A stretch of DNA of 64,000 bases from an uncultured archaeon (GTDB lineage: Archaea; Thermoplasmatota; Penumbrarchaeia; JASLWR01): the NCBI GenBank assembly GCA_964430885.1, contig CAYSHM010000005.1, positions 82,948 to 146,947 of the forward strand, given 5' to 3'. The notes beneath the pieces were generated by a model, which saw nothing but the letters and a program-made list of their open reading frames with translations, was not told the DNA's origin and searched no databases. Numbering within the stretch: position 1 is the first letter of the stretch; every line of letters begins with the position of its first letter. Below, one piece after another: positions 1,463 to 31,900 of this stretch. A program made the translations under genes and the position numbers.

Positions 1463-1578
1463 ATAGGAGCTTCGCCGATCTAACATGGAACATTAGATTA
1501 TGAATCCCTGATTGATAACAGAGAATGCTGGAATATATTCACTTTTGGAAAATTTTCTCGAAAATTACTGGTGATAGA

Positions 1579-6075: not shown

Positions 6076-9000
6076 TCATGCGGAGAATCTAGGCGGGCGC
6101 GGAACGTAATTCGGGAAAGTGGCGTTCTCTTCTGTTAGTTCAGCCGGTCCTTCTTCCATCAATGTTCCTGAGGGATATTGATCTCCATCTCTAGGATCCA
6201 AGGGTTCCAGTTGAGGGATATATTGAGCATCATCGTCATTATCTTCGGCTGGTACTATCCTGGGAGGAGGAGGGCGCGGGGTCGAAATTGCGACATTAAC
6301 AGCATATAGCCCCCTATCCTGCATTTCATTGCTGTTCATACCATTGTTATAAATGTCATTTTGTTGAAAAGGGCTGCTGCCAGTTTGATATGCGGTATCA
6401 TTTCTAGAGTTAGAGAAAGGCCCAACAGTATAGTGATTACCAGAGCCTTCCCACGGAGATGAATCAGGGGTGATCATAAAATCGCCGACTTCATCACCAT
6501 CATCATCTGTATCACTTCCCTTCTTTATCTTTACCAGGACAAAAATGACCACTGCGAGAATAATCAATAATACCAGCACTAGCACAACAATAATTACAGC
6601 ATTTGAGGATGAACCGTCGTCTGAATTTTCCTGAATGTACCCATTGTTGCCACCATCATCATCCAAATCATCATCGCCGATCCCGCCACCGGGTGAGTTC
6701 GGATCAGAATCCGTGGTCAATGTGAAGTTCCAGACTGGCGAGGACCAATCAGCTATTTCTCCATCCAAAAAGGGCTGAACGGACCAGTAATAAGTAGTGT
6801 CATTCCCACCATTCTCTGGTAACTGATCGAGTATGAAGGTATGATTTGATTGTATCAGTTCATCCGCATATTCTGAACGGGGAGGATTGACCGTTCCCAC
6901 AAGCACAGAATATGTTACCTGCCTTTTTCCAGGATAATCAAGTTCCCATTTAAGATCCGCCTTTTCGCCCTCTATGTTAGCTCCATTACTCGGTTCCTTT
7001 AAGGTAATAATTCCGGTCATTTCAACTGTGAATATCCATTGCTCTGATATATGAGGTGACTCGATACCGTCAAGGACAGGTACAACACGCCAATAATAGC
7101 TCATCATATCCTGAAGGCCTTCAAGTAGGGTATAATTTGAAGACACTCCATTGATTACAGTTCCGTTAATGCCCGGTGAATCACCTATGATAACAATGAA
7201 CTGGAGGGTGGAACTGCCGTTATAGGTGTAGTTCCATTCCAATCCAACCTCCTGACCTGATACCAATCCATTAAGGGATGGGAACAATAAGCCTATTGAG
7301 ACGGGATAACTTACGGAAAAATGGAAAATCTCGGACTGGGGTCCTCGGGATATCCAGTTCAATCGAGCCTTAATACACCAGTAATAGGTGGCCCCATCCT
7401 CCAGGTCCCATAAATTGACCAAACTGCCGGAATTATTAAGTAAATACGGTTCAAGCTCATCTTGCTCGACACCCATAAATATATCGAAGGTCAGCTTTTG
7501 ATTCCCAATATATTCAAAGTCCCAGGCCAACTCTGCATTGTAACCATATACCCAAGAGCGATTGGATGGTTGGGTAAGAGTAATAAGAACATCCAGTTCC
7601 ACAGTAAAATCAAAGACCGCAGAGCTCCAAACCGCCAGGTCTCCGTCAACATAAGGAATCACCTTCCAGTAATATGTCTCACCGTCCTTGAGACCCGTTA
7701 CCATGGTAGTGGTATCCGAAATAAAAGAAGCTACAATCCCCGATGGAGGTGTTTCGGCCCCTAAGAGAACATCAAATCGAACCCCACCCGATCCAGAGTA
7801 ATCCAGGTCCCACTGTAGTTCTATGGAAGTAGTATTGATAATATCTCCCTTATCCGGAAAAGTTGGTTCAACAGAGCCTTGAGGGAGCAGAATGTCAAAG
7901 GAAAATGATATCTCTTGCTCAGTGAAATCTTCATCGTACAGATCGTCATATATCACGGTAACCTCGTCCCCTCCCATCACCTTGATTTCGGAATCCGGTT
8001 TCGATGATGAAGAGGATAGCGTCACCTGACCCTGAAAAATGCCCGTATCATCACCGCTTTCCGTCAAAGAAAAGGTAATGCCTTCATTGTCGCTGTCAGA
8101 ATATATGCTCAGTTGAAGTTCTTCAATTTTTGTGGAATTCCCATTGGCATCCTTATCATTCACAATGACCGTTACTGCCTCACCGGTATAGAAATCTGTG
8201 CCCTGATCCCCGATACCTCCGGAAATCTCAAGGGTTCCAGTTGCAGTACCGTAAATATCCCATAGACTGGAAAAGTAATCGGAAGCTTGATCTGCAAAAC
8301 TGCTGTTGCTTACAAGCAGATTTGTATTAAGCTGATCATAGAGAGCCTCATATGCCCAATTGGTACTCCCCAAAAGGACCTTATCATCGCATAAAATAAG
8401 TTTTGCATGTGTATTCTTGTCAACACTGTCCACCACAGAGGGAATTCTGCTCTCTCTCAATAAATCCAGGGCGTTCAAGTTGTCAGCGCTCACATAATCC
8501 ATATAAGTGGTTTGCTCGAGAATAACCTTCACATCAACTCCTCTGTTGTATGCATTCTCTATTTTGCTTAACAGGATCTGTGCAGCCTGAGATTCGCTTA
8601 TATGATACATAATTAGACGGATTTCATCAGACGCTCCATCAATAATAACCGCAGCCTCATCGTAATATTCATCGCAAACAACGGTTTTTATACCGTTATG
8701 ATCGACTGCTGATAACGTAGGACAAGTGGTCTGGTCCGCCCAAATGCTCTCGTAATAGGATTTGAAAAAAGTTCCAACCGCGGTTGAGTTGACCAATACA
8801 TTCGCCTCATGATTTTCGAAGGTTGATTTCAGATCCCAATTGGTACTGCCTAAAAGCACTTTGTCATCAGCCACAACCATCTTGGAATGAAGTTTAATAT
8901 CATTACCATCCATCTTCACCTCCACACCATTTCCAATCAAATGGTCCTTGGTATCGTTGTTTTCCGGAGGCGTATTATCCATTAGAAATCTGACATCCGC

Positions 9001-9735
9001 ACCCCTTCCGTGAGCATCAATAAGAGACTGGTAAAGCTGGGATACAGAGTACTCCGGATGTGACGGATACAGGATGGAAAGGTACTGAAGAACATAGACA
9101 TAGTCATCTGCTTCCTCTATGAGACCTATGGCTTCTGAGGCGTAATTATTATCGGTAACCAGTTTCCCACCACCACCTTGGACAATGGGTGAATTGAGTT
9201 CGCCCGGAGTCGGAACATTGATGGATTCCCAATTGTCAACTCCGTCAGGAATCCTAGCTATCGAAATATCATCGGCTGTGCTGTCGAATTGAAAAAAATC
9301 CACGATTCCGCTCTGATCATCAAGTAGATTCACCCAGTCTCCTGCGTTATTGAGGCCTACGCCTGTCTGGGAGCCGTAGAATACCATAACCTCGCCGGGA
9401 CCTATACTCGTTCCACCAGGTATGGAATAAGGAGATGTACCACCAGCGGAAACGTCATCCAGCTGCCATCCCGATATGTCAACAGAGGCATCCCCTTTAT
9501 TGTAAAGCTCGATCCATTCGTCATCACCGTAATCCAAGGCGCCTGAACCGTCCCAATCATAGTTCGGATCGGCCAGGAATTCGTTGATAACTATCGGCCC
9601 AGCACGGGTATTTTTTTTTAAAAAATGGCCTAGCTGAAACTTCACCTCAATGTCAGAGTCAGAAGGAAACAAAAAGGCTGATAAGAGTGAAAAGGATATT
9701 AATAACGACAAAATGAAAATAACTGAACTTTTCAT
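6076..9735 (-). CDS. Secreted type-I membrane-anchored surface protein: lamin-tail domain + PLD-family (2x HKD) catalytic domain + 4 Fn3-like (YYW) repeats + TM + Pro-rich cytoplasmic tail
   Basis: Signal peptide MKSSVIFILSLLISFSLLSAF (ATG at 9735 with GGTGA SD; the track start 9759 is TTG). LTD signature PIVINEF..DP..DWD...DEWIELYN...DISGWQL. Two HKD motifs: HSKMVVADDKVLLGSTNW and HAKLILCDDKVLLGSTNW. Four ~100-aa repeats with YYW.V.P..DG....WS..W.F.. Single TM AVIIVVLVLVLLIILAVVIFVLV, then a ~150-aa tail containing PRPPPPR. Confidence 0.7.
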   Translation of the reverse strand: MKSSVIFILSLLISFSLLSAFLFPSDSDIEVKFQLGHFLKKNTRAGPIVINEFLADPNYDWDGSGALDYGDDEWIELYNKGDASVDISGWQLDDVSAGGTSPYSIPGGTSIGPGEVMVFYGSQTGVGLNNAGDWVNLLDDQSGIVDFFQFDSTADDISIARIPDGVDNWESINVPTPGELNSPIVQGGGGKLVTDNNYASEAIGLIEEADDYVYVLQYLSILYPSHPEYSVSQLYQSLIDAHGRGADVRFLMDNTPPENNDTKDHLIGNGVEVKMDGNDIKLHSKMVVADDKVLLGSTNWDLKSTFENHEANVLVNSTAVGTFFKSYYESIWADQTTCPTLSAVDHNGIKTVVCDEYYDEAAVIIDGASDEIRLIMYHISESQAAQILLSKIENAYNRGVDVKVILEQTTYMDYVSADNLNALDLLRESRIPSVVDSVDKNTHAKLILCDDKVLLGSTNWAYEALYDQLNTNLLVSNSSFADQASDYFSSLWDIYGTATGTLEISGGIGDQGTDFYTGEAVTVIVNDKDANGNSTKIEELQLSIYSDSDNEGITFSLTESGDDTGIFQGQVTLSSSSSKPDSEIKVMGGDEVTVIYDDLYDEDFTEQEISFSFDILLPQGSVEPTFPDKGDIINTTSIELQWDLDYSGSGGVRFDVLLGAETPPSGIVASFISDTTTMVTGLKDGETYYWKVIPYVDGDLAVWSSAVFDFTVELDVLITLTQPSNRSWVYGYNAELAWDFEYIGNQKLTFDIFMGVEQDELEPYLLNNSGSLVNLWDLEDGATYYWCIKARLNWISRGPQSEIFHFSVSYPVSIGLLFPSLNGLVSGQEVGLEWNYTYNGSSTLQFIVIIGDSPGINGTVINGVSSNYTLLEGLQDMMSYYWRVVPVLDGIESPHISEQWIFTVEMTGIITLKEPSNGANIEGEKADLKWELDYPGKRQVTYSVLVGTVNPPRSEYADELIQSNHTFILDQLPENGGNDTTYYWSVQPFLDGEIADWSSPVWNFTLTTDSDPNSPGGGIGDDDLDDDGGNNGYIQENSDDGSSSNAVIIVVLVLVLLIILAVVIFVLVKIKKGSDTDDDGDEVGDFMITPDSSPWEGSGNHYTVGPFSNSRNDTAYQTGSSPFQQNDIYNNGMNSNEMQDRGLYAVNVAISTPRPPPPRIVPAEDNDDDAQYIPQLEPLDPRDGDQYPSGTLMEEGPAELTEENATFPNYVPRPPRFSA

Positions 9736-9759
9736 AGATTCACCTATTCCTGTCTGCAA

Positions 9760-15401: not shown

Positions 15402-18400
15402 TCAAGCCATTCTCATAGCGTCCTGCGCCAACTCCAAAGCCTGTCTAAACTCGCCTTTTTCATAATATTTCTTGGCCTTTACAAAGGCTTCCTTGGCCTC
15501 TGGATTGCGGGATTCCTCGATTATCTCCCTTGTGGCCTCAACAATAACTCCCGCTTTGGTCCTCAACAGTCCGTTAAGGATCTGATTGGCCATTTCTATG
15601 CATTCCTTGGTAATATCATAGGATATCTCCACCTCTCCTTGGTTCATGAGGTTGAACGAACGGTCAACCTGAACCTTCAACTCAGATATATCCCCGTTGA
15701 ACGAACTTATTTCGAACATCAATCGTTCACATTCGTTAATATTCTCCTTTATCTTTTTCTTGAATAGACCCTGGCCTGCAACTTCTATGTCCCTTATAAG
15801 AGAAGCCTTCAAATCCATGGCCAATTCAAGATCGCCATTGCCGAGATGCGACAGAATTCTTGAATGCTGGGTGCGGAGTTGATTAGTACCTGCTCCCTGC
15901 AAAGCTAGTGCCCTAATTTTTTCTTCCCATGAAGGAGATTCTTTCTCCATATCGCTGATATTTTTCCATCTAATAAGCTGTTTGGTCACCATTATGCTCT
16001 CGGCCAGCAATTCCTTGGATAGATCCCATTCGCCCCTTTCCATGCACCTCCTGCCCTCAGTTAATAAACTCCAAGCCTGAGATACGTCAATACCTTTATT
16101 ACGGGTTCCCCTCACCAGAGCCTCCCCTCTTTTATATTTTTCCTGAAGCTTCTCGCTCATATACTTGTTCATACTCTGATTGTAATGGTCCATAGCCTTA
16201 TTGGCCAAACTATAGGCATACCTGTAATCTCCTGACGAATATTTTCTTTCGGACCTGTTAAGTTCATTTCTATAATGCTCCTCATCTACCATATCACTTC
16301 TAGAGGAAAGAACCGCATCCAGATCCTGTATTGCATTTCTGGCGGATTCCCTCTCCTTTCTCTTGATCAGCTCTTTGGAAAAATATACCATTTCCTCACA
16401 GCTCGTTCTGACCTGGGAAACATCACCGTCCTTTGCAGCCTGCTTTGTACGGCTGAACATATCCCTCAATGAGGGGGCACGCTCAAGTGAGACTCCAATC
16501 CTCTTCATCTCAGATATAGTGGTCTCCAGTATTGTTCGTGCCTTTTTCCTGTTCTGCATTTTTTTGGCCGCCTTTAGGGATTCATCGGCCTTATCCAGAT
16601 GTTTCTTCGCAGCATGAACATCATTTTCTCCCAAAGCATGGTCCGCTTTATCCAGCCATTTATCCATTTCAACAAACAGGGCTGAATGAAAGCTCAACTT
16701 GGCATATTTCATTTTTAGTTTTTCATGCCTCTGGATAAGCGCTACTTTCATGGCCCTCCTCCCCAGCATGGAGGTCAACTCCTTCAGCGACCTAATAACC
16801 TTTAACCTGGAAACCTGGTTTTCAATTGGTATATTATCCAATTCTCTACTGTAAAACTCAAAAGCCTCTATACCTTCTATACTCATCTGTTTCAGACCCC
16901 TCACTCCACCCATCTGGTCGATTGCTTTGTTGATGGATCTGATATCCCTATTGATCAAGTTCTCAGTCCTTTTGATAATCCGGTCCTTGACATCATCCAT
17001 ATTAACAAGGTTCAGACGGCCCTTACCCTGGAGAGATTTCCCATCTATAAAAGTAATTTTCTCTATCTGCTCATAGATCTCCCTGGCAATATCTCTGGGC
17101 AATAGCGGGGACAGATTGTAGAAGTAATCCTTGACATCCAGCAGTTTTCTATCAAAACGCCATTTTTCCTGACTTTTCTCCTCCACCTCCATGAAGTCCT
17201 GAAAAATCAGCATAATCTTAGTAAGATCGTGTTCATCCGCACTCTCCATGGATTTCAGCAATGCTGATAATTTGACCACTGGTTCCTCACCCCATTTCTG
17301 GGCCTTGGCCTTGTTCAGAACCGCTCTTTCGAGGCCTATCAGTTCCGCCTTAATCTGGCTGCCACGGAGGTTTCGGGTTTTGACTGCATTTTCCAGTGAT
17401 TCCCTAGCAGCCTTCTCGGCGCCCTCTAGATTGCCCTCCTCCAGCATTAATATAGCTTTTTGCAGATAACGGAAGCTTGACGATTGGTCGATACCGCCAG
17501 ACCCCAGTTCCTTCACCTTCCTGCGTGTGGCCTTTATTGTATCGGACACATGCTTTCTACGATGGGCCTCAAATTCTCTCTTAATCTCACGGGAAGTTTC
17601 CTCCAGCTTGATACCAGCTCCTTCAAAATCCCCCTCCTCCATAAGCTTCTCTATATACTCTACTTTCCTCAGATAGCTCTCTTTCCCCTTCTTCATGGTC
17701 AGAAGACGCGTCTTCAGATACTCTATGCGGGATCTGTAATCATGAGCCTTTAAAAGGTCCTGACATATTCCTTTGAGAGAACGCAATTTCAGTGTGCATT
17801 CCTCATACTCCTCGGAATGATACAGCCTTTTTCCTTTTTCAAAAGTGGTTCTCAGGTGGTCAATTTCTCCAGATATCCTGGCGGTTCTATCCATCAGTTC
17901 ATTTAGCTCCCTTATCAGATTCTGGGAATCGGTCTTGAAAAAGGTATCGCTGATATTTTGTGCAGATTTAAGACTCTGAGCTACTAATATCAAACCTCTT
18001 TTTGTATCCTCGTTGTTGAAGCATTCCCAAGCTTTTTTCAGAAGAAGCTGGGGGCCGGTCATATCTATATCTAGGGTCTGATATCTATCAATGAGAGTTT
18101 CGGCCTTTTCCATCTCGATCTCCAAGCGGGACAGACGGAACTGGTGCTCTCTCTCCCGGGCACTGGTCAGAGCATGTTCTATGTTATCCGAAATAGACTC
18201 GAACTCCTCGTCATCGATACCCTCTCTTCCTCTCAGCAGTTCTCTCATATCCTCCAACAAGCGTTTGGCCTTTGCTATCTTGACCCCCTCTCGTTCAATA
18301 TCTATGCATATATAGACCGCAGCTTCAAGCTTCTTATTCAGGGTATCTATGTTGAAAAGATATTTCTGGCTGTCAAGATGCATCTCCGATTCAGCTATCA

Positions 18401-21400
18401 GCTTCTCGCCCATATCCCAATTCTCTTTCTTGATCTCCTCGGTGCACCTTATAAAGTTCTCGGCTGCTCGGTTCAATGAAGATTTGGGTATTCCCAAACC
18501 CACTAATTCGTTGTAATATATCTTGACAGCTGTCATCCGGTTCTTTATCCTGGATTTCAGATAATTTGTCTTTGCCTTGTCCAGCATATTTTGGGCCGAT
18601 TCAAACAGGCTCCTTGCAGATTGAATGTCACCCTGCTGATACAGCTCTCGTACCCTTTTCACTATCTTTTCAGGCTGTTTGACATTTATACCTTTGATGC
18701 TCGCCTTGTCCATCTCTGCACTGAGATTTTCCAAGGATTCCCTGAGATCAATTTTTTCCCGAATGGAAAACGCCGAGTCTATGGCCTTATTATAAGTTTG
18801 AATGGAAGAATCATAGTATTCCTTCTCCAGAAATATATCCGCCCTTTCTTTTAGATCCAGAATATGATCCGCGACCCCATCTTTTTCCTGTAAATAATTT
18901 AGCAGTTCATTCAATTTGGACCGGGAATCGTATGCTTTTTTCTTGATGTAATCCCTATTCAACGACTGTATGTCAGTCTCCAATTTGGACACTTCTTCCA
19001 CGAATATATCATCCATCTTATCATTGGACACTTTTTTAAACTGGTCCAATCTGCCGTAGTAATCCGCAAGATCGACACTGCCCTGAGAATCATCTTTGAT
19101 AAAATCCAAAACCTTTTCTATCCTAAATAGTTGCCTTGCGGCCAATTTGAAATCATATTCTCTTCTGCGTTCTCTTGCTTCTCTGAAAGCGGCACCACAA
19201 TATTCCTTTACTTTATCCAAGCTCCCTTCAGAGAACATTTCCTTTGCATCTTCATAGAATGTCTTCATTAGTGTTGTGTCAAAATCCAATGAAGATATGT
19301 GAGCAATCTCTCGCCTAAGAGATTCCAGTTCCTCTTTGACATTCTTATGCTCCAGGGCTTTGGACAGATCAGAGCAGATCTCATCCATCTGTCCCATAAG
19401 CCATTTGGCATCCTTGATATTGCCTTCCTTGTAATAATCGTCCAATCTTACCAGGGCTTCGGCCAATTGTTCAGTGTCCAAACCTTGTATCTCATAATTA
19501 TTAAGCATTGACCGGGTAGAATCTAGATAATTACAGACCCTCTTGACCTCTAATTCAGTTATCAGATCATCAATATCTGCTCTTCTTCTCTCAATCAAAG
19601 TCTTTGCCTTCTCGAAGGCGCCATCGCCAATTGAGCGCTTGATCTCTAAAAGTTTCATTTCCATATCTAATACGTTCTCCCCCAGCTGGGAAATATCAAA
19701 GAGCTCATCCTCCATATCGTAGAGCTTACCAAGGAGATCATTTGAGATATAATTCTCATATGCCTTCTTTGCTCTCTCCCAGCCCATGGATATACAGCTA
19801 GCGGCATTGTCATGATCATTTTTCTCAAGTCTTGACCTGGCCTTTTCAATGAAAGACCTTAGGGGATCCACATCAATACCCAAGTCAGTAAGCTCATCGA
19901 GTCTTTGCCTGAACTGGTCCAACTCGGTCCAATAGTGACTGACATATTCATTTTCAATATCAACCTCTATATCGAACAAACCCTTCCGCACCTCATCCAG
20001 TCTTCCAGTCTTGAAAATGTCGGTAATGCCTCTCAATCTGCTGTCCAATGTAAGTATGTCTTTCCCTTTTACCCCAAGCTTCCGGCATTTTTCCCTGAGT
20101 GCTTTTAATTTTCTAAATAATTCAAGTATATTCGTTTTGCTCTTAATCATGCTCCTGACCCTATCGGACAGTTCAAAAGCAGCCCGGTATCTTTGAGCTT
20201 CGAAAAGGTCGATTACCCTGTCAAGTTCCTTCTTCATAAGTTCGATGTCCTGACCAGCTTCTAGGAGTTCCGGAAAAATAACCTTGCTTTCAGATATTAA
20301 TTCAAGTATCCTTTCCTGCTGATAGGTTCCCTTTAATCTTTGTGCAATATCCCATGCACGCTTCACATCTTTACTAGCCTTTTCAATATTATCCTTCTCC
20401 ATGGAGGCCCGAGCATCGGATAATAATTCCTCCAGCGTGGAAGTGTCCATTGAAACATTTCGCCATTTTTTAATTTCCGATTCTATGGAGAACATCCTCT
20501 CTTTTAGAACCGGAACTTTCTTTCTCTGCATCTTGATGTCCAAAGAACTATCTATCCTCTTGAGCAAATCTCTGACGCCGTCTAGGTCATCCTCATTTAT
20601 CAACCTCAAGGCATCCTCAACCATCTCATCAACATCTTCGAGATCGAAATCCTCCTTCCTCAGGTCCTCGATCCTTCTCTCGGTGTTATCAAGCATTCCG
20701 GCTATAGAATTCCTTAAATGTACCCTTTTTTTATCTGCAATATCCTTCTCCAAGTTGTCGAATAATGCTTTCAGGGCCTTGAAATCGCCCTCCTCTATCC
20801 TATTCTTGATAGCCATCAATCTCTCCTCCAAAACTGAGGTATCTATTCCCTTTCTTTCCAGCATTTTCAGTGACGAGTGAACTTCCACCAATGTCTTTAA
20901 ATGGTTCCTTTTCATGAACTCATCATCGGCTTCAGTGATGTATTTATAGGCGCGTTTAACAGTACTCAATGCTGATTCTACATCATCACTTCTAAGCTTG
21001 ATCTCCGCAGCTCTCAACAAAATCTCGGCCTTCACGGGCTTCAGCCCTGCCTTTTTGAGTTTGACAAGCCTGCTCTCGGCTTCCTCCCAGAGCTGTTTGG
21101 CTTGGGAAGCGTTTTCCTGAAGCTCCCTAGTCCTGATGATTGCTTCCATTTCACCCAATAATTCTCTGCCGAGAATTACATTTGACCTATCCAAGGCCTC
21201 CTGTATATGCGGGTATTTGGTCTTCAGAAGGGCAACATCCATACCATTGGCAGCCATCGCCCCCACAGATTCCTTCAGAAGTGAGAATCGGCTATGGATC
21301 ATATCGACATTATATTTTTCCAGTTTGGCCTTGGACAATAAAGCCCCTTCTCGGGCAACTTTGGATACAAAGGGATAATCTCCCTGATAGAACGCATTTT

Positions 21401-22346
21401 GAGCTCCTAAGAACATCTCTTTTATATCTTCAATATCCACGCCCATGTTATCAAGCTTCACCAACAATCCCTGGAGGATGGACAACTCGTTTATCGCTTT
21501 TTTCATTCTAATATCATTTGTTCTTTTGGCAACATCATCCGAGAGCCGATTCAATCTGCTTTTGGCATCATGATATTTCCTTTTGATAATCCTTTTTTTA
21601 CATACCTGGAGATGTTCCAATTCCCTCTTAACATCAATACCGTCCTTTTCAAGAGACCTTATGCTCATCTCGACGTCTGATATCCGGAGTTCCAGTTCAT
21701 TTATGTACTCACTATCCCTAACCGACATCATTTCCTCGATCAATATTTCCGAAAGTTCTATCGCCTCGTCAAAATCCCCGTCCTTGAGTGCGGTTTTGGC
21801 ACCTGAATAGCTTATCTTAAAATTCCTAACACTCACACCTTTTTGTTCCAGTGACTTAGAATCCATTTCAGAAAGATCATTCAATATCTGGCGGGCTTTA
21901 GATAATTTCTGCTGGGCATTCTTTATTTTAATACCGTCCTCAAGACGTTTTATGATGGAGCGGCAATTGGAAAGAATCATTTGTGCAGCCTTGAACTTTC
22001 CATCCTTCAAGGCTTTGAACCCATCGTTCAGTCTGATACTGATTGCATTGGTATTGGCACCCTGATCCTTTAAAAACGAGGTCTCTTTGCGGGTTCTCTC
22101 GAACTCCTCCCATACCTTTTCCCTGATAGGTAGGTCCTGTTTACCTTCACCCTCGAATTTGGGACGAGCATTGGATTCCGCAGGCAAATCAACCGCATGG
22201 TTGTCATGATCAGCTGTTTCTTCTGCATGATCCTTTCCTTCACGGGACATGAGCTTGGATGCAAGATCACTCACTTTGCCGGGAGAAACACCTTCACCTG
22301 TCTTCTCCCTCTTTTCAGTGGAATGAATTTTTTTATCACGGTCCAA
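15402..22346 (-). CDS. Giant (2314 aa) cytoplasmic all-helical repeat protein; ~20+ degenerate ~95-aa repeats
   Basis: Uninterrupted 6945-nt ORF. No signal peptide, TM segment or Walker motif. Recurring unit [KLN]G[IV]D....L.....(~20 aa)..G[DN][FWYL]..A..L. Examples: KGIDTSVLEERL...EEGDFKALKALFDNL; QGLDTEQLAEAL...KEGNIKDAKWLMGQM; KGINVKQPEKIV...QQGDIQSARSLFESA; GGIDQSSSFRYL...EEGNLEGAEKAARESL. TTG start at 22346 with a GGAGG SD 6 nt upstream. Confidence 0.7.
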   Translation of the reverse strand: MDRDKKIHSTEKREKTGEGVSPGKVSDLASKLMSREGKDHAEETADHDNHAVDLPAESNARPKFEGEGKQDLPIREKVWEEFERTRKETSFLKDQGANTNAISIRLNDGFKALKDGKFKAAQMILSNCRSIIKRLEDGIKIKNAQQKLSKARQILNDLSEMDSKSLEQKGVSVRNFKISYSGAKTALKDGDFDEAIELSEILIEEMMSVRDSEYINELELRISDVEMSIRSLEKDGIDVKRELEHLQVCKKRIIKRKYHDAKSRLNRLSDDVAKRTNDIRMKKAINELSILQGLLVKLDNMGVDIEDIKEMFLGAQNAFYQGDYPFVSKVAREGALLSKAKLEKYNVDMIHSRFSLLKESVGAMAANGMDVALLKTKYPHIQEALDRSNVILGRELLGEMEAIIRTRELQENASQAKQLWEEAESRLVKLKKAGLKPVKAEILLRAAEIKLRSDDVESALSTVKRAYKYITEADDEFMKRNHLKTLVEVHSSLKMLERKGIDTSVLEERLMAIKNRIEEGDFKALKALFDNLEKDIADKKRVHLRNSIAGMLDNTERRIEDLRKEDFDLEDVDEMVEDALRLINEDDLDGVRDLLKRIDSSLDIKMQRKKVPVLKERMFSIESEIKKWRNVSMDTSTLEELLSDARASMEKDNIEKASKDVKRAWDIAQRLKGTYQQERILELISESKVIFPELLEAGQDIELMKKELDRVIDLFEAQRYRAAFELSDRVRSMIKSKTNILELFRKLKALREKCRKLGVKGKDILTLDSRLRGITDIFKTGRLDEVRKGLFDIEVDIENEYVSHYWTELDQFRQRLDELTDLGIDVDPLRSFIEKARSRLEKNDHDNAASCISMGWERAKKAYENYISNDLLGKLYDMEDELFDISQLGENVLDMEMKLLEIKRSIGDGAFEKAKTLIERRRADIDDLITELEVKRVCNYLDSTRSMLNNYEIQGLDTEQLAEALVRLDDYYKEGNIKDAKWLMGQMDEICSDLSKALEHKNVKEELESLRREIAHISSLDFDTTLMKTFYEDAKEMFSEGSLDKVKEYCGAAFREARERRREYDFKLAARQLFRIEKVLDFIKDDSQGSVDLADYYGRLDQFKKVSNDKMDDIFVEEVSKLETDIQSLNRDYIKKKAYDSRSKLNELLNYLQEKDGVADHILDLKERADIFLEKEYYDSSIQTYNKAIDSAFSIREKIDLRESLENLSAEMDKASIKGINVKQPEKIVKRVRELYQQGDIQSARSLFESAQNMLDKAKTNYLKSRIKNRMTAVKIYYNELVGLGIPKSSLNRAAENFIRCTEEIKKENWDMGEKLIAESEMHLDSQKYLFNIDTLNKKLEAAVYICIDIEREGVKIAKAKRLLEDMRELLRGREGIDDEEFESISDNIEHALTSAREREHQFRLSRLEIEMEKAETLIDRYQTLDIDMTGPQLLLKKAWECFNNEDTKRGLILVAQSLKSAQNISDTFFKTDSQNLIRELNELMDRTARISGEIDHLRTTFEKGKRLYHSEEYEECTLKLRSLKGICQDLLKAHDYRSRIEYLKTRLLTMKKGKESYLRKVEYIEKLMEEGDFEGAGIKLEETSREIKREFEAHRRKHVSDTIKATRRKVKELGSGGIDQSSSFRYLQKAILMLEEGNLEGAEKAARESLENAVKTRNLRGSQIKAELIGLERAVLNKAKAQKWGEEPVVKLSALLKSMESADEHDLTKIMLIFQDFMEVEEKSQEKWRFDRKLLDVKDYFYNLSPLLPRDIAREIYEQIEKITFIDGKSLQGKGRLNLVNMDDVKDRIIKRTENLINRDIRSINKAIDQMGGVRGLKQMSIEGIEAFEFYSRELDNIPIENQVSRLKVIRSLKELTSMLGRRAMKVALIQRHEKLKMKYAKLSFHSALFVEMDKWLDKADHALGENDVHAAKKHLDKADESLKAAKKMQNRKKARTILETTISEMKRIGVSLERAPSLRDMFSRTKQAAKDGDVSQVRTSCEEMVYFSKELIKRKERESARNAIQDLDAVLSSRSDMVDEEHYRNELNRSERKYSSGDYRYAYSLANKAMDHYNQSMNKYMSEKLQEKYKRGEALVRGTRNKGIDVSQAWSLLTEGRRCMERGEWDLSKELLAESIMVTKQLIRWKNISDMEKESPSWEEKIRALALQGAGTNQLRTQHSRILSHLGNGDLELAMDLKASLIRDIEVAGQGLFKKKIKENINECERLMFEISSFNGDISELKVQVDRSFNLMNQGEVEISYDITKECIEMANQILNGLLRTKAGVIVEATREIIEESRNPEAKEAFVKAKKYYEKGEFRQALELAQDAMRMA

Positions 22347-22454
22347 ACTCTTTCCTCCAAATACCTTAAGAATAACTCCTCATGATTGATCATATTCAGA
22401 TCTAAAGCCGAATCCCGGTCATATTAGACCAATTATCTAATCAATACCAATCAA

Positions 22455-25340
22455 TTAGATGCTCAGGAATACTACGGATATTATGGTTGACAGTACAAGC
22501 CATAATACAAATGTGGGCAGCAGTCGTTTTATCAGTATTGACTCCTTGTTCTTGAGACCAACTGCCGTCGCTATCACTACTGCGTTCATTGGTGAAATCA
22601 TCTCACCTGCACTCGAACCAAGTACCTGAGCCGCAGCAGTTCTTACGAGTGGCAACCCCAATGACCCTGCAGCTTCCATATGCAGAGAACCGAAGAGCAC
22701 ATTGGATGTGGTTGTTGAACCAGTAAGTGCTGACCCGCTCATACCTATGGAAGGAATGAAATACTTGTAAGCACCTCCAACAATATCCACTATTGTGGAT
22801 GCTATGGAAAAGGTCATGTCAAAATATCTCATGATATTCGCAATGGCCATAAATGCGGCAATAGTCAGCATTATGGGAAGGACCTCTTTTCCAGTCTGTT
22901 TCAATCCCCGTGCTACCATTCTAGCAGGCTTGATTGAATCAGCCAGACGGCCTATCTTTACCCTTTTACCTTCAGGTTCGGTTTCGAATTCTATTTCATC
23001 ATCGTCATCATCTTCAAATTCCAGCTCGAAATCATCATCGTCATCATCTTCAAATTCCAGCTCGAAATCATCATCGTCATCGTCGTCATCAAATGAAACC
23101 ACAAATTCATCGCCGGCATCTTCAATTATGAATTCTTCATCATTGTCTTCATCATCGTCGTCATCCTTAATGTCTATTGAATGGTCCCCTCCATCATTTA
23201 CCAAAGGCATTCCCATTGACAATGAATGGGTTCTTGTTCTTTTTTTCTTCTTTTTACGCTTGGGCTCGGTAATGCTTTCAACATCATCTTCCTTCTCATC
23301 GACAACTGGTTTTTTCTTCTTCTTTTTCTTTTTCTCTTCATTCTTATCCTGTTCATCTGAATCTTCATCATCACTTTCATCGGCGGCAGGTCTCTTTCTC
23401 TTTTTCTTCTTTGGCTTGACTTCGGCCTCCATATCCCTCTTCTTCACCTTTTTCCTTTCCCCTTCAACTCCATGGTCCTTTTCACCTGCCCTCTTGGAAC
23501 CTTTACTCTTTTCCAGAGCTCTCTTTTTTCCTGGGTGTTTTCTCCCATCCGATCTTTTATCCTTTTGAGAAGCATCTTTTTTCTTCTCTTTTTTATTCTG
23601 CTTATCTTCATCGTCATCAATTGGAGATATCTCATCGGATTCCAGATTTCTTATGAAACTACCGTCGAGATCGCTCTCAGGGGAAAAACTAGCTGCGATT
23701 TTTACAAACAATGGAACTGTGATTGCGACTATAAGAAGAATCGTTCCAGGCGAATAAAGCGGGGAGAACATCATGACCTTCCCTTCCGAAACTGTGTCAA
23801 AGGGAACGCTCAAGGTCATAAAATCTGCCGTGAGAAGACCCTTCAACGGCATTAAAAGACGTGTGACCAGCAGGATGAGGACCATGAAGCCCATTGACCA
23901 GAAATAAGGCCGAGCCAATAAGGTATTCTTGGGTTTGATCGATCCGCTGTCCTTTCCTGATTTCTTCTTCTCATCACCCCATCCAAGTATCCCCTTCTCC
24001 TTTTCGTTTAGCTTCTTCACAGATACTAATTTCTCATAGAGTATAACAAATAACAGGGTCGCGCCACCGGCAATGATTGTTGGAAGTTCGGGGCCAGTGA
24101 AGTAGGCTACCAGGGCCTGTATAGTTCCGTATACCGCCCCCATTCCCATGAGCAGGACTATATCTTCCCTGAGGTCCGGATCCTTGAAGTCTGCAAGGGG
24201 GCCCTGTTTGGTGTATACCAGGCTCATTATCAGAGGGGCAGGGATACAGAGTATTATCATATAGATCCCTATCCATCCTGAAAGGTCCATAAGGGCTAGT
24301 CCAGTAACTTCTTTTAGTGCTATAATGCTTACCCCGAGAAGTCCGAACACTGAAGATATTGAATTACCAAAAAGACAGAGGACTCCAACACCCACTCTGT
24401 TAAATCCCAAAGATACCAGCATGATGGCGGCAATAACAAAATTTGAACCGGCTGGGGCCACTGTTGCCATGATCAGAGCAAAGCAGAAACCTATAAGCAG
24501 GATCTGGTGCTGTTTATCTGTAGATATCGATTTGAAATCCTCCTTCAACTGTTCCATGGCACCTACCTTTTCCAGCATCTTAAGGAAGAAGAAAGCACCA
24601 AATATGGCATAGATGTAATCTAATCCACCCCATAGGGCCGAATATAATATGGTGGCCACTATCTTCTCAAAGGCGGCACCTACCTCCAATTCCTGTCTGA
24701 AAAATACCAATGCCAGTATAATAGTTATTCCCAGAGCGCAGGGGGCCACTATCTTTGAGGAAATCCTAAATACCAGAATCATGAAAAATACAAAAACCAA
24801 AGGAATAATCGCTATCAACGCCAGATACCATTCAAATTCATCATCCTCTTCATCACCGATGAAACCGCTAAGGTCAAGTATTACCTGATTATCGTTCTTA
24901 GAAGGATCTATAATATCTTCATCTGTTTCCGGTGCCAGACTTATCCTTATTCGCATTCGGCTTACTGATGTATTGTCAATTTCAAGGAACACGCCTATGT
25001 TATCCTCAGGTTTATCGCTTTGGAGAGTTTCATTATATATTGTTCTCCAAAGACCTCCGTCATTACCATGGTCCAAATCAACAAAAATGGATATGTCAGT
25101 CCCCATATGGTTCCTGATTGTAACGATAATCTCCAAGGTCTTTTCGGGATCCACATTTTCTGTAACCTTGTTTCCCTTAACTGTCAGGGTCTTCTGATCC
25201 TGCCTCAAGGTCACTTCCTTGATGGCAATGTTATTCTCAAGGGATTCGGATTCTTCCTGACCTAGTACAAAGGGAACGGACGATAATAATATCAGCAGGA
25301 CCAATAAAATTGGAATGTAAATCTTTCTTAAATATACCAT
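22455..25340 (-). CDS. L-lactate permease (LctP) family transporter with N-terminal extracellular domain and a large hyper-charged cytoplasmic insertion
   Basis: LctP signature blocks: DKQHQILLIGFCFALIMATVAPAGSNFVIAAIMLVSLGFNRVGVGVLCLFGNS (cf. E. coli LldP DQRLQMLIVGFCFGAFLEG...[23 protein letters not shown]), and C-terminal LTGSTTTSNVLFGSL...GEMISPMNAVVIATAVGLKNKESILIKRL (cf. LTGSDTSSNALFAAL...[28 protein letters not shown]). Signal peptide plus ~190-aa extracytoplasmic N-domain. ~230-aa K-rich then D/E-rich insertion (KKKKKKKK..., DDDDDDDDFELEFEDDDDDDFELEFEDDDDD). ATG at 25340; the track start 25349 is GTG. Confidence 0.75.
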   Translation of the reverse strand: MVYLRKIYIPILLVLLILLSSVPFVLGQEESESLENNIAIKEVTLRQDQKTLTVKGNKVTENVDPEKTLEIIVTIRNHMGTDISIFVDLDHGNDGGLWRTIYNETLQSDKPEDNIGVFLEIDNTSVSRMRIRISLAPETDEDIIDPSKNDNQVILDLSGFIGDEEDDEFEWYLALIAIIPLVFVFFMILVFRISSKIVAPCALGITIILALVFFRQELEVGAAFEKIVATILYSALWGGLDYIYAIFGAFFFLKMLEKVGAMEQLKEDFKSISTDKQHQILLIGFCFALIMATVAPAGSNFVIAAIMLVSLGFNRVGVGVLCLFGNSISSVFGLLGVSIIALKEVTGLALMDLSGWIGIYMIILCIPAPLIMSLVYTKQGPLADFKDPDLREDIVLLMGMGAVYGTIQALVAYFTGPELPTIIAGGATLLFVILYEKLVSVKKLNEKEKGILGWGDEKKKSGKDSGSIKPKNTLLARPYFWSMGFMVLILLVTRLLMPLKGLLTADFMTLSVPFDTVSEGKVMMFSPLYSPGTILLIVAITVPLFVKIAASFSPESDLDGSFIRNLESDEISPIDDDEDKQNKKEKKKDASQKDKRSDGRKHPGKKRALEKSKGSKRAGEKDHGVEGERKKVKKRDMEAEVKPKKKKRKRPAADESDDEDSDEQDKNEEKKKKKKKKPVVDEKEDDVESITEPKRKKKKKRTRTHSLSMGMPLVNDGGDHSIDIKDDDDDEDNDEEFIIEDAGDEFVVSFDDDDDDDDFELEFEDDDDDDFELEFEDDDDDEIEFETEPEGKRVKIGRLADSIKPARMVARGLKQTGKEVLPIMLTIAAFMAIANIMRYFDMTFSIASTIVDIVGGAYKYFIPSIGMSGSALTGSTTTSNVLFGSLHMEAAGSLGLPLVRTAAAQVLGSSAGEMISPMNAVVIATAVGLKNKESILIKRLLPTFVLWLVLSTIISVVFLSI
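22985..23095 (-). repeat. Perfect 36-bp tandem repeat (2 full copies + partial) encoding the DDDDDDFELEFE units inside the transporter's acidic insertion
   Basis: tcatcatcttcaaattccagctcgaaatcatcatcg at 23005-23040 is repeated exactly at 23041-23076. A degenerate copy lies at ~22985-23004 and GAT/GAC-rich tails follow. Confidence 0.85.
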
Positions 25341-25925
25341 CAAATACACCGGGATTAGTTTTTAGAAGGTTATATAATACCAAAATCTGTACAGTTTTGG
25401 ATTTATAAGGTTATCTCACTGAAATAATTATTGGTTTTATTAAAGTTTTTCCAGATATATTCCCTACTAAATACTCCTCTTGATAAAATAAGCATCATGC
25501 CGTTTGCGATAATTGATACGGCATATTGGAATATTTAATCAAACTCAAGGATCCTTTCGGGACTCCCACGGAAGCCCCCTAATCTAGACTAAATATGCAT
25601 CATACTATATACCAGCCCAATCTATAATATACAATAATTATATAGTATGAAATATTAACTACCTCGGCCCAAAGGCTTAATATTGATTTGAATGGAATAT
25701 GTTAATTATTGAAGATATTATTAGATCAAGAATGATGAAAGAAAATAATGCCAGTTGAATTGGTTTTTCGACCAAATAGAGAAACAAATTCCTTCCCTGG
25801 ATCATGAAGTAATAATTAAAAGCATTTTAAATGTCATAATATTGCCTCGAATATTTGAACAAAAACGTTAAGGAATTCATGTGATAAGCTCTTAATCAAA
25901 GCTGGAAGCGGCCAAGGTGTTGAAA

Positions 25926-28900
25926 ATGGGTAAGAAGAACAGAAAGGATATTGAAAAGGAGGTCCTGTCAATAGTAAGCGAGAAAACAGGATACCCCATC
26001 GATATGATTGATATCGAACATGATATGGAAGCCGACTTGGGTATAGATACTGTCAAACAGGTAGAGCTTTTTGGTGCTGTCAGAGAAAATTACAATCTTC
26101 AAGAGGAAGAAGGCGTCAATCTTTCCGAATATGCTTCTATTAAGGATGTAGTCCAGTTCATTGTGGATAAACTCGGCATTCCCGAGATGTCTGAGGTAGA
26201 TGCAGGTGAGGAAGAAGGTGCGGAATCGGAAGCAATGACCTCAGAGGAAGTGAAAAAAGATGAGGGTGAGGGTAGCAAAAGCGCACCAGTTCAAAAACAT
26301 ACAGTAAACATCATTGAAACTGAACGGGATAGGGATGAAATAACTTCCTATATCCATAGCTCCTTGGAACCCATAGCCGTAGTAGGCTTGGGCGGAATTT
26401 TTCCCGATTCAAACAGCATAACTGAATTTTGGCAAAATATAATTGAGGGGAAGGATTCCATTGACGAAATACCTGAAGATAGATGGGACATCTCAACCTT
26501 CTATGATCCCGACTCTAAAACCTCTAAGAACAAGAGTTATACAAAAATAGGGGCTTTCGTAAAGGATTTTGAGTTCAATTCCATAGATTTCCGTATTCCT
26601 CCAAATATTATCAAGCACATCGATCCCGTTCAGCTCTGGACCCTTGCAGCTACAAAGGAAGCTTGGGAGGATGCAGGTCTACATAAGAAGGATGTGGCCC
26701 GGGATAGGGTCAGTGTTATTCTAGCCAATGCCCAGGGTGGAGAACATCGAGACACGAACAGCAGTTTGGTATATCTGTACGACTTCATCAGGGCAATGGA
26801 AAAAAGCTCGGTCTTCAGTAACATGAAAAAGGCAGAGCGGAAAATCAAGGTGGAAGCCATAGAAAAGGAATTCATGAAGAACATGCCCGAGATAAATGAG
26901 GACACAATGCCTGGTGAATTATCGAACATTGTTGCATCTCGAGTTGCAAATAGATTTGATTTCTTCGGCCCTTCATTCACCTGTGATGCAGCATGTGCTT
27001 CCTCCTTTGCCGCCATAGACACAGCAGTGAAATATTTGAGGGAAGGTGATGCGGACATTCTTATTACTGGAGGAGCTGACCGGAGCATGAATCCATCCAC
27101 CTATGTGAAATTCTGCAAGATAGGAGTCCTGTCAAAGACCGGCAGCCGCCCCTTCGATGCAAAGGCCGACGGTTTCGTCATGGGTGAAGGAGCAGGTATT
27201 TTAGTACTGAAAAGGCTTTCAGATGCTATAAAGGACCTGGATAAGGTCTATGCGGTAATCAGAGGTATTGGTGCTTCCAGCGATGGCAAATCCAAAGGTA
27301 TCACCGCTCCAAATCCCCTTGGGCAGAAGAAGGCGATAGAGAGAGCTTATGAAAAAGCAGGATATGACCTCAGCACTGTTTCCCTTATCGAAGCTCACGG
27401 TACCTCCACAGTAGTAGGTGATGCTACCGAGCTGAAGACATTGGCAGACATTTGGAGCGGAAAGGGATTCCAGAAACAGAGTGTTGGAATAGGATCCATC
27501 AAGTCGCAGATAGGTCATCTGAAAAGCGCGGCTGGGGCCGCAGGACTTATCAAAATGATATTGGCCCTTCATCACAATACCTTGGCACCTACTATTAACT
27601 ATAAGGAAGCCAATCCTAATGTCAATCTTGATGAAACTCCATTCTTCGTAGTAACCGAACCTCGAAAATGGGAAAGACCAAGAATTAAAGGGGAATTGAT
27701 TCCCAGGAGAGCCGGCGTAAGTGCTTTCGGTTTTGGCGGGTCCAATTTCCATGTGACATTGGAGGAATTTACTGGCAATTATCCGGATCTGACTGCTGGA
27801 ATTGAGAGTACAAAACCAACCCATAGCCCTGAAAAAGTAATTGATCCTGAGCTTTATCTTAAGGAACACTCGGATATGGAGGGTGATGTCATAAGCATAT
27901 CCGCGGATTCTCTTGATGAACTTAAGGCTCAGGCCCAAACCCTATCATCAGACTTGAAGAAAGCCCTTAAGGATGAAGGAGAATACTTCCGATTGGCATC
28001 ATTTGCATATGATATCAATCGGATATTGGATTCCGATAAAATACGGACTTTTAGACTAGCGGTTTCTGCTCAGAAAGGGAAAGAGATGGCGGATCTGTTC
28101 CTGCTGGCAGCTGAGAACGTGCACAGCACGGAAAGGATGGCAATGCTGGAAAACAAGGGTATATTTTTCAGCAATCCTGACATATTGACTGAACTCGGAC
28201 ATTTAAAAGATGGTGTTGTCCATCCTCCGAAAACAGGCTTCGTTTTCCCTGGCCAGGGATCGCAGTATATCAATATGCTGAGGGATGTGAGCAATAAGTT
28301 TAGAGCTGTAGAAGACACCTTCATTGAATCTGATGAAATAATGACTGATATTATCGGCGAACCCCTTACAAATATAATCTTTTCAGATGAACATGATTCA
28401 GAACAAGATGTTAAAAGAAAACAGAACAGGATGACTGATACGGAAATTACCCAGCCTGCAATGATTACTGGTGATATTGCACTGTACCGATTATTCAAAA
28501 TGTACGATCTGGAACCTGCTGCGGTAGCCGGGCATTCCCTTGGAGAATACGGTGCATTAGTGGCTTCTGAGGTCATGGATTTCAAAAACGCGCTTTTGGC
28601 CTCATCGGCAAGGGGAAGGGAGATGGCGAACATCGAGATCGAAGACAAGGGCAAGATGGCCTCGGTGGCTGCCGGAGAAAAGGAAGTTCAGGAAATTTTG
28701 GATTCCATCGACGGCTATGTAATAGTAGCTAATAAGAATTCCTACAGCGAGAGTGTGATTTCAGGAGCTTCCAAAGCCGTGGAAGAAGCTGTGGAGAAAC
28801 TCAATAAAAAAGGCATCAATACGATTTGGCTGCCCGTGTCCCATGCATTCCATTCTGAAATCGTTGCTCCGGCCAAGGTTCCGCTGAGAAATTTCCTTGA

Positions 28901-31900
28901 GAATCGGGAATTTCATTCGCCTTCAATCCCTGTTCTTACAAATGTGGACGGCAGCTTCTACCCCACAGGTAGAAATGTCAAGGGCAGGGTAATCGACATT
29001 CTAGTTGATCAGATCGCAGGAGCTGTGGAATGGGTTAAGGAAATGGAAGCATTCTATAATGAATTGGACATACGATTCTTTGTGGAAGTTGGAACAAAAA
29101 GGGCTCTGACTACAACCATCAATCACATATTCCATAACAGACCGCATAAGGCTGTCCTGACCAACCATCCTAAAAAGGGGGGACTGAGGACCTTCAATGA
29201 AGCTTTGGCGCATCTTAGTGCCTGCGGTGTGAAGATCAAATGGCCGGCCCCTGATAACCGCACAGTCTATACCGATCTATTTGTGGATGCAGGAATGGAG
29301 TTGAAAAAGAAGGTTCAGGTGCAAAAAAGGGCAGTCATATCACCTCCGGTGAGTCAAAGGAGAGAAGGAAACTATACAGAAGAGATCCAAACTGTAGTGC
29401 CGGTAGATACTACTATATCCGCTCCATCTTCGATGGATATATTGTTGGACATCAAACCCAAGAACCATATAGCTGGTATTGATGAAACTGCCTATAAGGA
29501 TTTCATTCAAACCGAAGGCCAGGAACTATTGGAAATAATCAATGACAGATTCAGGAAATTCCAGGCAAGCAGGGGTGGAGAACTTCTCAACCGCATTAGA
29601 TCTTTAGGTCTCTATCTTGGGTCGGTTTCCATCTCAGGTACTGGAATAGGGCTGCCAGGAAAAGGAAAAAGGGTTTTCTCGACCTCAAATGTGGATAAAA
29701 TCCTTCAGGGCGGAAATTTTATAGATAGACTATCTGAAGAACAGATGAAAAAGATGTGCGATAAGAACATCATCCGGCTCCTCAAGATGCCTGACGGCGA
29801 TGCAAAAATGATACCTATAGATAATATTGACCAGGTCATCAAGTTTGCCGGGCTTAGGGGTGATTTCGATGTGGTCGAGGAATACGGTGTTGAAGTGAGT
29901 ATTGCCGGAGCCCTTGACATTACCTCCAAATTGGCCATTGCCGCCGGAATTGAGGCTTTAAGGGATGCTGGGATACCCTTGGTCAAGGAATATTATACCA
30001 CTTCAACGGGAACATATCTTCCCAACAAATGGGTGCTGCCCGAACCCCTTCAGGAAGGGACTGGTGTAATATTCGCTTCAGCTTTCCCAGGATATGATAA
30101 TCTGATAGATGAGATATCCCGTTATCTAGCCCACAAATTCACCTCAAGATCAGCTATTGAAAAAGAGGGACTCTATGAAGATATCCTTGAGCAGATAAAT
30201 GATAAGAAAATCAAAGAGCAATTGAGGGATTGGATAAGCAAAAATAGAATTAGGCAGGAGGATGAATACAGGGAAGAGGAAGAATATAAGTTCAACCGGA
30301 AATTCCTATGGAGGGTCCTCTCAATGGGTCATTCCCAATTCGCCCAGTTCATAAAGGCAAAGGGACCCAATACACAGGTGAACGCCGCCTGCTCATCCAC
30401 AACCCAAACCTTCAGCATCGCCGAGGATTGGATCAGAACAGGCAGGGCTGAGAGAGTGATAATAATTGCTGCTGATGATGCTACCTCTGAAAATATGCTC
30501 CAGTATGTAGGCAGCGGATTTATAGCAATCGGAGCTGCAACTGTAAAGGACAAACTTGAGGAAGCGGCACTGCCCTTTGACAGAAGGAGGAACGGCCTTA
30601 TAGTCGGGATGGGTGCTGCGGGATTCGTAGTAGAAAGAAAAGAGGACATTCTTAGAAGAGGAATGAAACCCGCAGTGGATCTCCTAGGAACATACCTTTC
30701 CAACAGCGCTTATCATGGTTCAAGTCTCGATGTTGAACATATTACTTCTGAACTTGAGAACTTCATCAGAAGGGTGGAAAGAGCTAACAATCTCAACAGG
30801 AACGACATAACAAAAAATATGCTATTCATGTCCCATGAAACCTTCACTCCTGCCAGGGGCGGAAGCGCAGATGCGGAGATGGACAGCTTGCGACGTGTGT
30901 TCCCTGACACCTACAGAAATATCATTGTAACCAATACCAAGGGCTATACGGGACATGCACAGGGCGCAGGTATAGAGGACGCAATAGCCATAAAGGCCCT
31001 TCAGCACGGCAGAACCCCGCCTATCGCAAATCTCATGGAACCCGATCCTAATCTGGGGGACATCAAGCTGTCCAAGGGAGGAAAACATCCATTCGAATAC
31101 GCCTTAAGGCTGGCTGCCGGGTTCGGCTCTCAGGTTGCTTTCAATCTGCTGAAACTTCAATCAAGAGAAGGAGAAAGGATGGCCGATGAAATAACCTATC
31201 AGAACTGGCTTAAGGAGATATCCGGACTTGAACAGGTGGAAACCGAGGTTGCCCATAATACCCTTAGAATAAAGGACGTAGGGCCTGGAAGGATCGTCAG
31301 TAAAAGACCGGTATCCAAGGTAAAAAATCTTTCAAGGGACGATTCTATTTCTTCGGAACAGAGAAGTCAAAAGAGCAGTATTCCGGAAGGAGAGGAAATA
31401 ATAACCGCTAAAAGCAATGATGAGAGGGGGCAAATAACCGAAGAAGTTATGGAGATGGTTGCCGAAAAAACAGGTTATCCCGTGGATATGCTGGAACCGG
31501 ATCTGGATATGGAAGCAGACCTGGGTATCGACACTGTAAAACAAGTGGAGCTCTTCGGTGCTATCAGGGAAAATTATAACCTGGAACAGGAGGAAGGGGT
31601 CAATCTCTCGGACTACGATACTCTGGACGGCATCGTTGAATACATTTATTCCAGATTGCTGAAGGAAGGGAAAATTGTTGAGGAGGCAATTCCAAAAGGG
31701 GAAGAGTTAGCCGTTCAAACGGAATCAGGGGAATCAAAGCTGCATTTAAAAGTGGAGCGGAAGGTTCTTGAGATAGTAGCTGAAAAAACAGGATACCCTG
31801 TTGATATGCTGGAACCAGATCTGGATATGGAAGCAGACCTGGGTATCGACACTGTAAAACAAGTGGAGCTCTTCGGTGCCATTAGGGAAAACTATAAGCT

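Follow-up and report, generated by a model that had tools for sequence, protein, structure and literature searches.

A stretch of 64,000 nt from an uncultured archaeon (the window) contains a gene that would encode a giant protein of 2314 aa. The questions raised by this locus are whether such a product is real, how it is built, and with what it may work. The original prediction described a cytoplasmic protein of some 20 or more degenerate helical repeats of about 95 aa, plausibly a giant scaffold, encoded beside an unusual LctP-like transporter and genes of giant surface proteins.

The giant gene and its repeat unit

The open reading frame is intact: the ORF listing and the translation give one uninterrupted frame of the predicted length at the predicted place (all features are listed in Table 1). 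An in-frame TGA is found 11 codons before the TTG codon, and since there is no ATG, GTG or TTG in between, TTG is the first possible start. To call it the only available one, as had been done, goes too far, since GTG in codon 25 and ATG in codon 33 are also in frame. The Shine-Dalgarno-like GGAGG motif, 7 nt upstream, favours TTG over both of them.

The TTG start and the lack of an annotated family could suggest a pseudogene, a mis-assembly or a non-coding artefact. We consider this extremely improbable. The product is identical in four public sources (JGI, ENA, NCBI and Logan), the copies differing only in the translation of the start codon, and at the DNA level the gene contains no tandem or dispersed repeats for an assembly program to collapse; the array must hence be old and not produced by the assembly. 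Moreover, six other lineages have collinear orthologs of full length, and the confidence of the AlphaFold2 (AF2) model of five units is very high (see below). The pseudogene reading was dropped.

Glu, Leu, Lys, Asp and Arg together constitute 48% of the protein, and Pro, Trp and Cys are scarce. No hydrophobic or transmembrane (TM) segment, signal peptide, Walker A motif or CxxC motif was found in the 2314 residues, in agreement with the predicted absence of a signal peptide, TM segments and nucleotide-binding motifs. Judging from the missing signal peptide and TM segments, this is a cytoplasmic protein, and the possibility that it is secreted was dropped. An SMC/Rad50-type coiled coil was rejected as well, as it had been originally, given the absence of Walker A and of any ATPase match in Pfam, and the helices broken every 15-43 aa. 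Pfam and NCBIfam yield zero families at or above the cutoff on the whole protein, consistent with the earlier statement that it matches no family.

The repeat unit turned out to be different from the predicted one. The BLOSUM62 autocorrelation of the protein reaches z=8.9 at shift 66, with harmonics at 132, 198, 264, 330 and 396 (z from 8.3 to 5.5), while shift 95 yields z=-0.9; the highest z among 200 shuffles is 4.4. Thus repeat detection does reveal significant periodicity, but the period of about 95 aa was dropped in favour of 66 aa. When the sequence is written in lines of 66 residues, both motifs, G[IV]D and GD[FY]..A, fall into register nearly all the way from residue 82 to the C-terminus. 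Iteration of a self-trained HMM finds 24-30 units, many of them spaced exactly 66 aa over long stretches, and the number of unit slots in residues 77-2314 is about 34 (27-30 of them detectable by HMM), rather than the predicted 20 or more. The core motif itself had been recognized correctly, as its relaxed form G[IV]D...GD[FWY]..A occurs 13 times, compared to 1.7 +/- 1.3 (maximum 6) in 500 shuffles. The unit HMMs were trained on the giant protein itself, and independent giant proteins were used as support: an HMM trained on this protein only matches two of them, P0002 and P0003 (E ~1e-28), with the 66-aa spacing retained. The 66-aa periodicity is real.

Table 1. Features of the giant gene and its permease partner, in window coordinates.
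Feature	Position	Strand	Remarks
Giant gene, cytoplasmic all-helical repeat protein (P0001)	15402..22346	minus	2314 aa + stop, TTG start
Residues 77-2314, array of ~34 units of 66 aa	15405..22118	minus	HMM, autocorrelation, AF2 models
Residues 1660-1870, motif lost, helix alternation predicted to be kept	16737..17369	minus	length conserved without gaps in orthologs
Residues 283-612, five AF2-modelled units	20511..21500	minus	mean pLDDT 96.2, pTM 0.75; 43-aa and 15-aa helices alternate
Residues 1-76, charged low-complexity N-terminal region, no repeat signal	22119..22346	minus	orthologs have 2-3 extra units here
Spacer, permease stop to giant start	22347..22454	minus	108 bp, no terminator-like site on the minus strand
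GGAGG, Shine-Dalgarno-like motif	22354..22358 (22358-22354)	minus	7 nt upstream of TTG, direct reading
Partner gene, LctP-family permease	22455..25349	minus	964 aa (961 aa by public pipelines)
Permease insert, residues 556-822, K/R-rich then D/E-rich	22884..23684	minus	motif NDGGD[YFH].[VI].[FI] + acidic run

Predicted fold and the wider repeat family

Five consecutive units were modelled with AF2 from an alignment of 32 non-overlapping five-unit windows of the repeat family, and the segment model came out with the confidence given in Table 1. In model numbering, the helices occupy positions 2-18, 24-38, 42-84, 90-104, 108-150, 156-170, 174-216, and so on. A unit is thus predicted to start with a 43-aa helix, which a GxD loop of 5 residues connects to a 15-aa helix, and to end in a GD[FY] turn of 3 residues. 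We read each short helix as forming a small three-helix bundle with the C-terminal half of the long helix before it and the N-terminal half of the one after it; the long helices would run from bundle to bundle, in the manner of spectrin and EzrA. In the motif-poor residues 1660-1870, modelled at lower confidence from a three-row alignment (pLDDT 78), long helices of 36-44 aa again alternate with short ones of 13-17 aa. As this stretch keeps the helix alternation, the whole protein looks, according to the models, like one continuous rod, and there is no distinct C-terminal domain. From helix lengths alone, we estimate that a unit adds about 3 nm, for a total rod length of roughly 100 nm.

Rods of linked three-helix bundles are considered a hallmark of eukaryotic spectrins, EzrA being the sole prokaryotic example (PMC4243239). 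Spectrin repeats (PF00435; spectrin, alpha-actinin, dystrophin) are likewise tandem antiparallel three-helix bundles with a helix continuous between bundles, forming a long rod, as predicted for the giant protein. The spectrin unit is, however, about 106 aa long, compared to 66 aa here, where the middle helix is much shorter; the giant protein has no PF00435 match and no actin-binding or terminal domain, and its host is an archaeon. EzrA, a bacterial regulator of cytokinesis (PF06160; PDB 4uxv, 4uy3), shares serial three-helix bundles joined by continuous helices, but its five repeats, each of about 100 aa, are preceded by an N-terminal TM anchor, and it has a four-helix bundle at the C-terminus. 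The giant protein, in contrast, has about 34 repeats of 66 aa and no TM anchor, so that a link to the membrane would need a separate permease. Given the other unit length, the absence of profile matches, and the lack of a TM anchor and terminal domains, it belongs to neither family. The nearest natural structure to one unit is that of DUF357 (PF04010; AF_1782, PDB 2oo2), an archaeal three-helix bundle whose homology to the unit is unproven; DUF357 proteins, unlike the giant array, are single domains of about 75 aa. Foldseek with the predicted model yields no significant match in PDB.

The original comparison with helical hairpins and TPR-like solenoids needs a more careful treatment. It is correct in that the protein is helical and TPR-like at the level of the motif: the GxD loop can be matched with LDP of consensus TPR proteins, the short helix with helix A, the GD[FY]..A turn with GDY, and the start of the long helix with helix B. 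In particular, positions 18-54 of the unit align with the consensus TPR (each stretch is weak alone, with i-Evalue 0.4-15), the profile search of PDB sequences matches solely consensus or engineered TPR proteins, and one relative is labelled "TPR repeat protein" by JGI. One could therefore suppose that annotation has overlooked a canonical TPR or Sel1-like solenoid adaptor. However, TPRs have a period of 34 aa, while that of the giant family is 62-66 aa, the second helix being longer by about 30 residues in the giant protein; no Pfam TPR model (clan CL0020) passes the threshold; and the prediction is of serial bundles, not of a superhelix. Single units match TPR_1 or TPR_2 in just 4-5 cases out of 64 (best E 4e-4), and weak matches of single units are scattered over TPR_1/2, EzrA, DUF4398, COG4_N and PTS_IIA. 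We regard a canonical solenoid as very improbable. By period and profile the giant protein is not a TPR protein; part of its unit resembles a TPR hairpin, and serial three-helix bundles describe its predicted fold better.

The repeat is not confined to this protein. The unit profile A1 (66 columns, 64 units) was searched against 1.84 billion cluster representatives, matching 3274 of them at E<=1e-3, 1015 at E<=1e-10 and 266 at E<=1e-30; the giant protein itself scores 733 bits in 27 stretches. The largest among the best matches have 7686 aa with 91 stretches and 7274 aa with 85 stretches. The number of units rises with protein length across the matches, a large class within the family having about 1500 aa and about 21 units, and the unit spacings in the best 150 matches cluster at 62, 63, 64 and 66 aa. 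Less exhaustive searches do not retrieve the family: a shared-word search with the whole giant protein returned the protein itself and two distant relatives only, and one with the unit alignment returned no relatives.

According to the record titles, the named organisms are Thermoplasmatota/Thermoplasmata MAGs, with the exception of two short contigs (~1.1-1.2 kb) binned as Planctomycetota. Family members that have names are called "hypothetical" or are obviously mis-named, and no Pfam model covers the 66-aa repeat in any member tested. Many relatives carry inserts missing from the giant protein. In one kind, an Ig-like (CARDB) module precedes a domain that faintly matches longin (Fuz_longin_1, E 1e-3); other kinds are C-terminal TPRs, RING or zinc-ribbon domains. 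The longin/roadblock-like insert domain, common in relatives, is absent from the giant protein. The gene contexts are diverse as well: P0002 is encoded amid genes of KaiC-like ATPases, P0003 adjoins IleRS, and P0022 adjoins heterodisulfide-reductase-like genes. Since these members are not encoded beside permeases, the repeat is a general building block and not a permease-specific one.

The giant protein, with its tandem units of family length, GxD loops and GD[FY]..A turns detected by the unit profile, is a member of a large, uncurated family that is new but has a known kind of architecture; no published description of it was found in a restricted literature search. The family comprises thousands of clusters of linked-bundle-type proteins lacking any description in curated libraries, and a family model for the 66-aa unit would annotate many of the largest "hypothetical" genes of abundant marine archaea.

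A conserved gene pair with an LctP-family permease

Two relatives, P0032 and P0131, share even the motif-poor stretches with the giant protein and are collinear with it, with 25% identity over 2242 and 1817 residues, respectively, and about 2% gaps. Such collinearity means that each unit has its own ortholog and that the number of units is conserved. Collinear orthologs in general are 24-26% identical to the giant protein (over ~2240 aa) and 41-80% identical among themselves, so the protein from the window is an outlier, and it lacks the 2-3 N-terminal units that the others carry. Conservation among orthologs is patchy and unit-specific (e.g. residues 434-453, 684-703, 866-885, 1082-1101 and 1379-1398), which is the pattern expected from distinct binding sites along a rod, while the conserved number of units argues for a constraint on length or scaffold geometry.

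As stated originally, the giant gene directly follows the gene of an LctP-like transporter on the same strand, and the comparison of genomes shows that this arrangement is conserved. The gene of P0032 is located directly downstream of a 945-aa Lactate_perm gene. Downstream of the genes of two permease homologs, P0174 and P0170, there are genes of repeat proteins of 2442 and 2448 aa, respectively. Three further loci, including one titled "Thermoplasmatota archaeon ETNP2_MAG_1", came from a permease-based scan of GTDB genomes; in each of them the permease gene is immediately followed on its strand by a repeat-bearing ORF of 2467-2482 codons (counted from stop to stop). The scan of metagenomes added only one duplicate of locus L008 (99.95% identical), and the scan of genome contigs with the giant protein as the query yielded no locus. 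After removal of duplicates (L006 and L018 duplicate L008), each of the seven distinct loci has an LctP-like gene of 937-989 aa that is directly followed, on the same strand, by the giant ortholog. The spacers between the two genes vary from 108 to 365 bp.

Besides a signal peptide and an extracellular domain of about 140 aa that matches nothing in Pfam, the permease contains an LctP core interrupted by a large charged insert. The TM stretches of the core are nearly identical between orthologs. The insert begins after about residue 555 and has 250-277 aa in the orthologs; the motif given in Table 1, together with its acidic run, is kept in all eight aligned permeases, and so is a second acidic-aromatic motif. 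The K/R-rich segment of the insert abuts the next TM helix, and by the positive-inside rule the insert is probably cytoplasmic.

The insert and the giant gene tend to occur together. The closest other class of permeases (P0177 and P0178; 755-780 aa, ~50% core identity) has at the same site a shorter insert (~100 aa) that contains a CPxC...CPxC zinc ribbon, and there is no giant gene near them; this control comprises two distinct permease lineages. Ordinary LctP proteins (~545 aa, 26-28% identity) have no insert. We propose that the gene pair of the long-insert LctP-like permease and the giant protein, present in every distinct locus and absent beside the short-insert relatives, is a new two-gene module.

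Function, rival explanations and other neighbours

In view of these results the earlier suggestion of a scaffold is plausible, and the pairing with the permease is the strongest functional clue. Our preferred reading, still tentative and a little short of an even chance, is that the giant protein is a rod-shaped cytoplasmic scaffold working with the upstream LctP-family permease. Each of the ~34 tandem units would supply a short antiparallel helix flanked by halves of two successive long helices, and the TPR-like element, from the short helix through the GD[FY] turn into the beginning of the long helix, may provide peptide-binding surfaces repeated along the rod. Most likely, the permease insert of about 260 aa would dock on the rod via its conserved acidic-aromatic motif NDGGD[YF]EV.F-DDDD. 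Such docking would either tether the rod to the membrane or let the rod organize or regulate the permease, resulting in a membrane skeleton analogous to spectrin with band 3. Short peptides of acidic or aromatic character are common ligands of TPR-type hairpins, which makes docking plausible but is no proof of it. The ORF, its 66-aa periodicity, the predicted helix pattern, the large family and the conserved gene pair are shown by the data; how long the rod is, that the insert faces the cytoplasm, and that the two proteins touch, and for what purpose, is what we infer.

Three observations count against coupling to the permease: the spacers of 108-365 bp could hold separate promoters, the control of the insert comprises two lineages, and relatives of the giant protein are encoded in unrelated contexts. 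An alternative is a generic cytoplasmic scaffold or cytoskeleton-like rod unrelated to the permease, the adjacency being the gene order inherited within one clade. The spacers and the use of the same repeat in thousands of proteins in differing contexts (P0002, P0003, P0022) point this way. Still, the pair persists despite the low identity of the giant proteins and although all other neighbours have changed, and the nearest permease class without the long insert is also without the giant; an independent rod is therefore possible but rather unlikely. The rod could also act on the permease without being a skeleton, as a sensor or plug on the charged loop gating the flux of lactate or other anions. 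This shares the evidence of the conserved gene pair with the scaffold reading, and a conserved short motif in a low-complexity loop is typical of regulatory docking sites. However, regulation of one permease has no obvious need for ~34 units, and their conserved number in orthologs points to a constraint on length or scaffold geometry, so we consider gating decidedly improbable.

Extended further, the scaffold reading would give marine Thermoplasmatota a membrane skeleton, in which ~100-nm rods attached to the loop of an anion (lactate-family) permease shape or stiffen the envelope. Spectrin is tied to the membrane via the anion transporter band 3, through ankyrin, and the archaeal pair would be its functional analogue. 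This extension is unlikely as it stands. If it were true, the wider family, whose members reach 91 units and include some with longin/roadblock-like and Ig-like inserts, would represent a major uncharacterized class of cytoskeletal or scaffold proteins in archaea. Should the contact prove real, the pair would be a simple archaeal model for tying a membrane skeleton to a transporter. In any case, one subfamily now has a concrete candidate partner, a permease with a docking-like motif in its 260-aa charged loop.

The supposed link to giant surface-protein genes did not hold. The large neighbour on the plus strand (25917-35060, 3047 aa) is a type I PKS/PUFA-synthase-like enzyme and not a surface protein. 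No window genes other than the pair are conserved in the ortholog loci, and a link to the PKS gene, to the DUF711 gene or to surface-protein genes was dropped, as none of them is conserved beside the orthologs. Surface proteins of the Ig/PKD type are encoded further off in the window.

Inserts and gene neighbours of the repeat-family relatives

Many relatives of the 2314-aa helical-repeat protein (below, the giant) carry a recurrent insert in which an Ig-like (CARDB) module precedes a domain of ~130 aa that matches longin faintly (Fuz_longin_1, E 1e-3). PDB sequences gave no match to it. In addition to its occurrences in the distant relatives P0002 and P0003 (see the table), this insert was observed in ~40 regions of other repeat-family members. 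The giant itself lacks it.

The 3123-aa P0002 (locus L002, GCA_964624865.1 contig CAZUZU010000025.1) is flanked by three to four genes encoding KaiC/RecA-like ATPases, and another repeat protein, of 1441 aa and 11 units, overlaps its start. This arrangement may represent a separate functional module that uses the repeat found in the giant. P0003, which itself ends with a DUF5915 domain, is adjoined by an isoleucyl-tRNA synthetase of 1460 aa that bears fused DUF5915, DUF835 and zinc-ribbon domains (locus L003, 7386-11768).

Coordinates of inserts and of large window proteins
Feature	Position	Strand	Content
CARDB + longin-like insert, P0002	residues ~307-475		
CARDB + longin-like insert, P0003	residues 826-1076 and 1399-1982		
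Charged insert of LctP-like permease	residues 556-822 of gene 22455-25349	-	~260 aa, K/R-rich then D/E-rich
Type I PKS/PUFA-synthase-like gene, 3047 aa	25917-35060	+	KS, AT, three PP-binding stretches (ACP), KR, DH
1227-aa protein	6076-9759	-	lamin-tail domain, two PLD domains
1775-aa protein	50167-55494	+	Kelch propeller, LamG, Big_9 domains
611-aa ORF	4123-5958	-	no Pfam match
683-aa ORF	40137-42188	+	no Pfam match

The LctP-like permease

The permease adjacent to the giant is itself an unusual protein: it combines a signal peptide with an extracellular domain (~140 aa, unmatched in Pfam) and the charged insert, within which the motif NDGGD[YF]EV.F-DDDD is conserved. At the site of this insert, sister permeases (the closest relatives, with no giant neighbour) contain a zinc ribbon instead.

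Other large genes and base composition

The PKS-like gene, divergently oriented with respect to the permease gene, resides in an apparently Thermoplasmatota genome and is not conserved as a neighbour in the compared loci of the giant's orthologs. It was seemingly counted among the "surface proteins" of the original prediction, but it encodes an enzyme rather than a surface protein. The 1227-aa and 1775-aa proteins are probably extracellular.

Across the giant and permease genes (window 16000-24000), GC skew is strongly negative (-0.21 to -0.24), as is AT skew. The skew reflects the purine-rich coding of the minus strand (E/K/D/R codons) rather than a replication feature.
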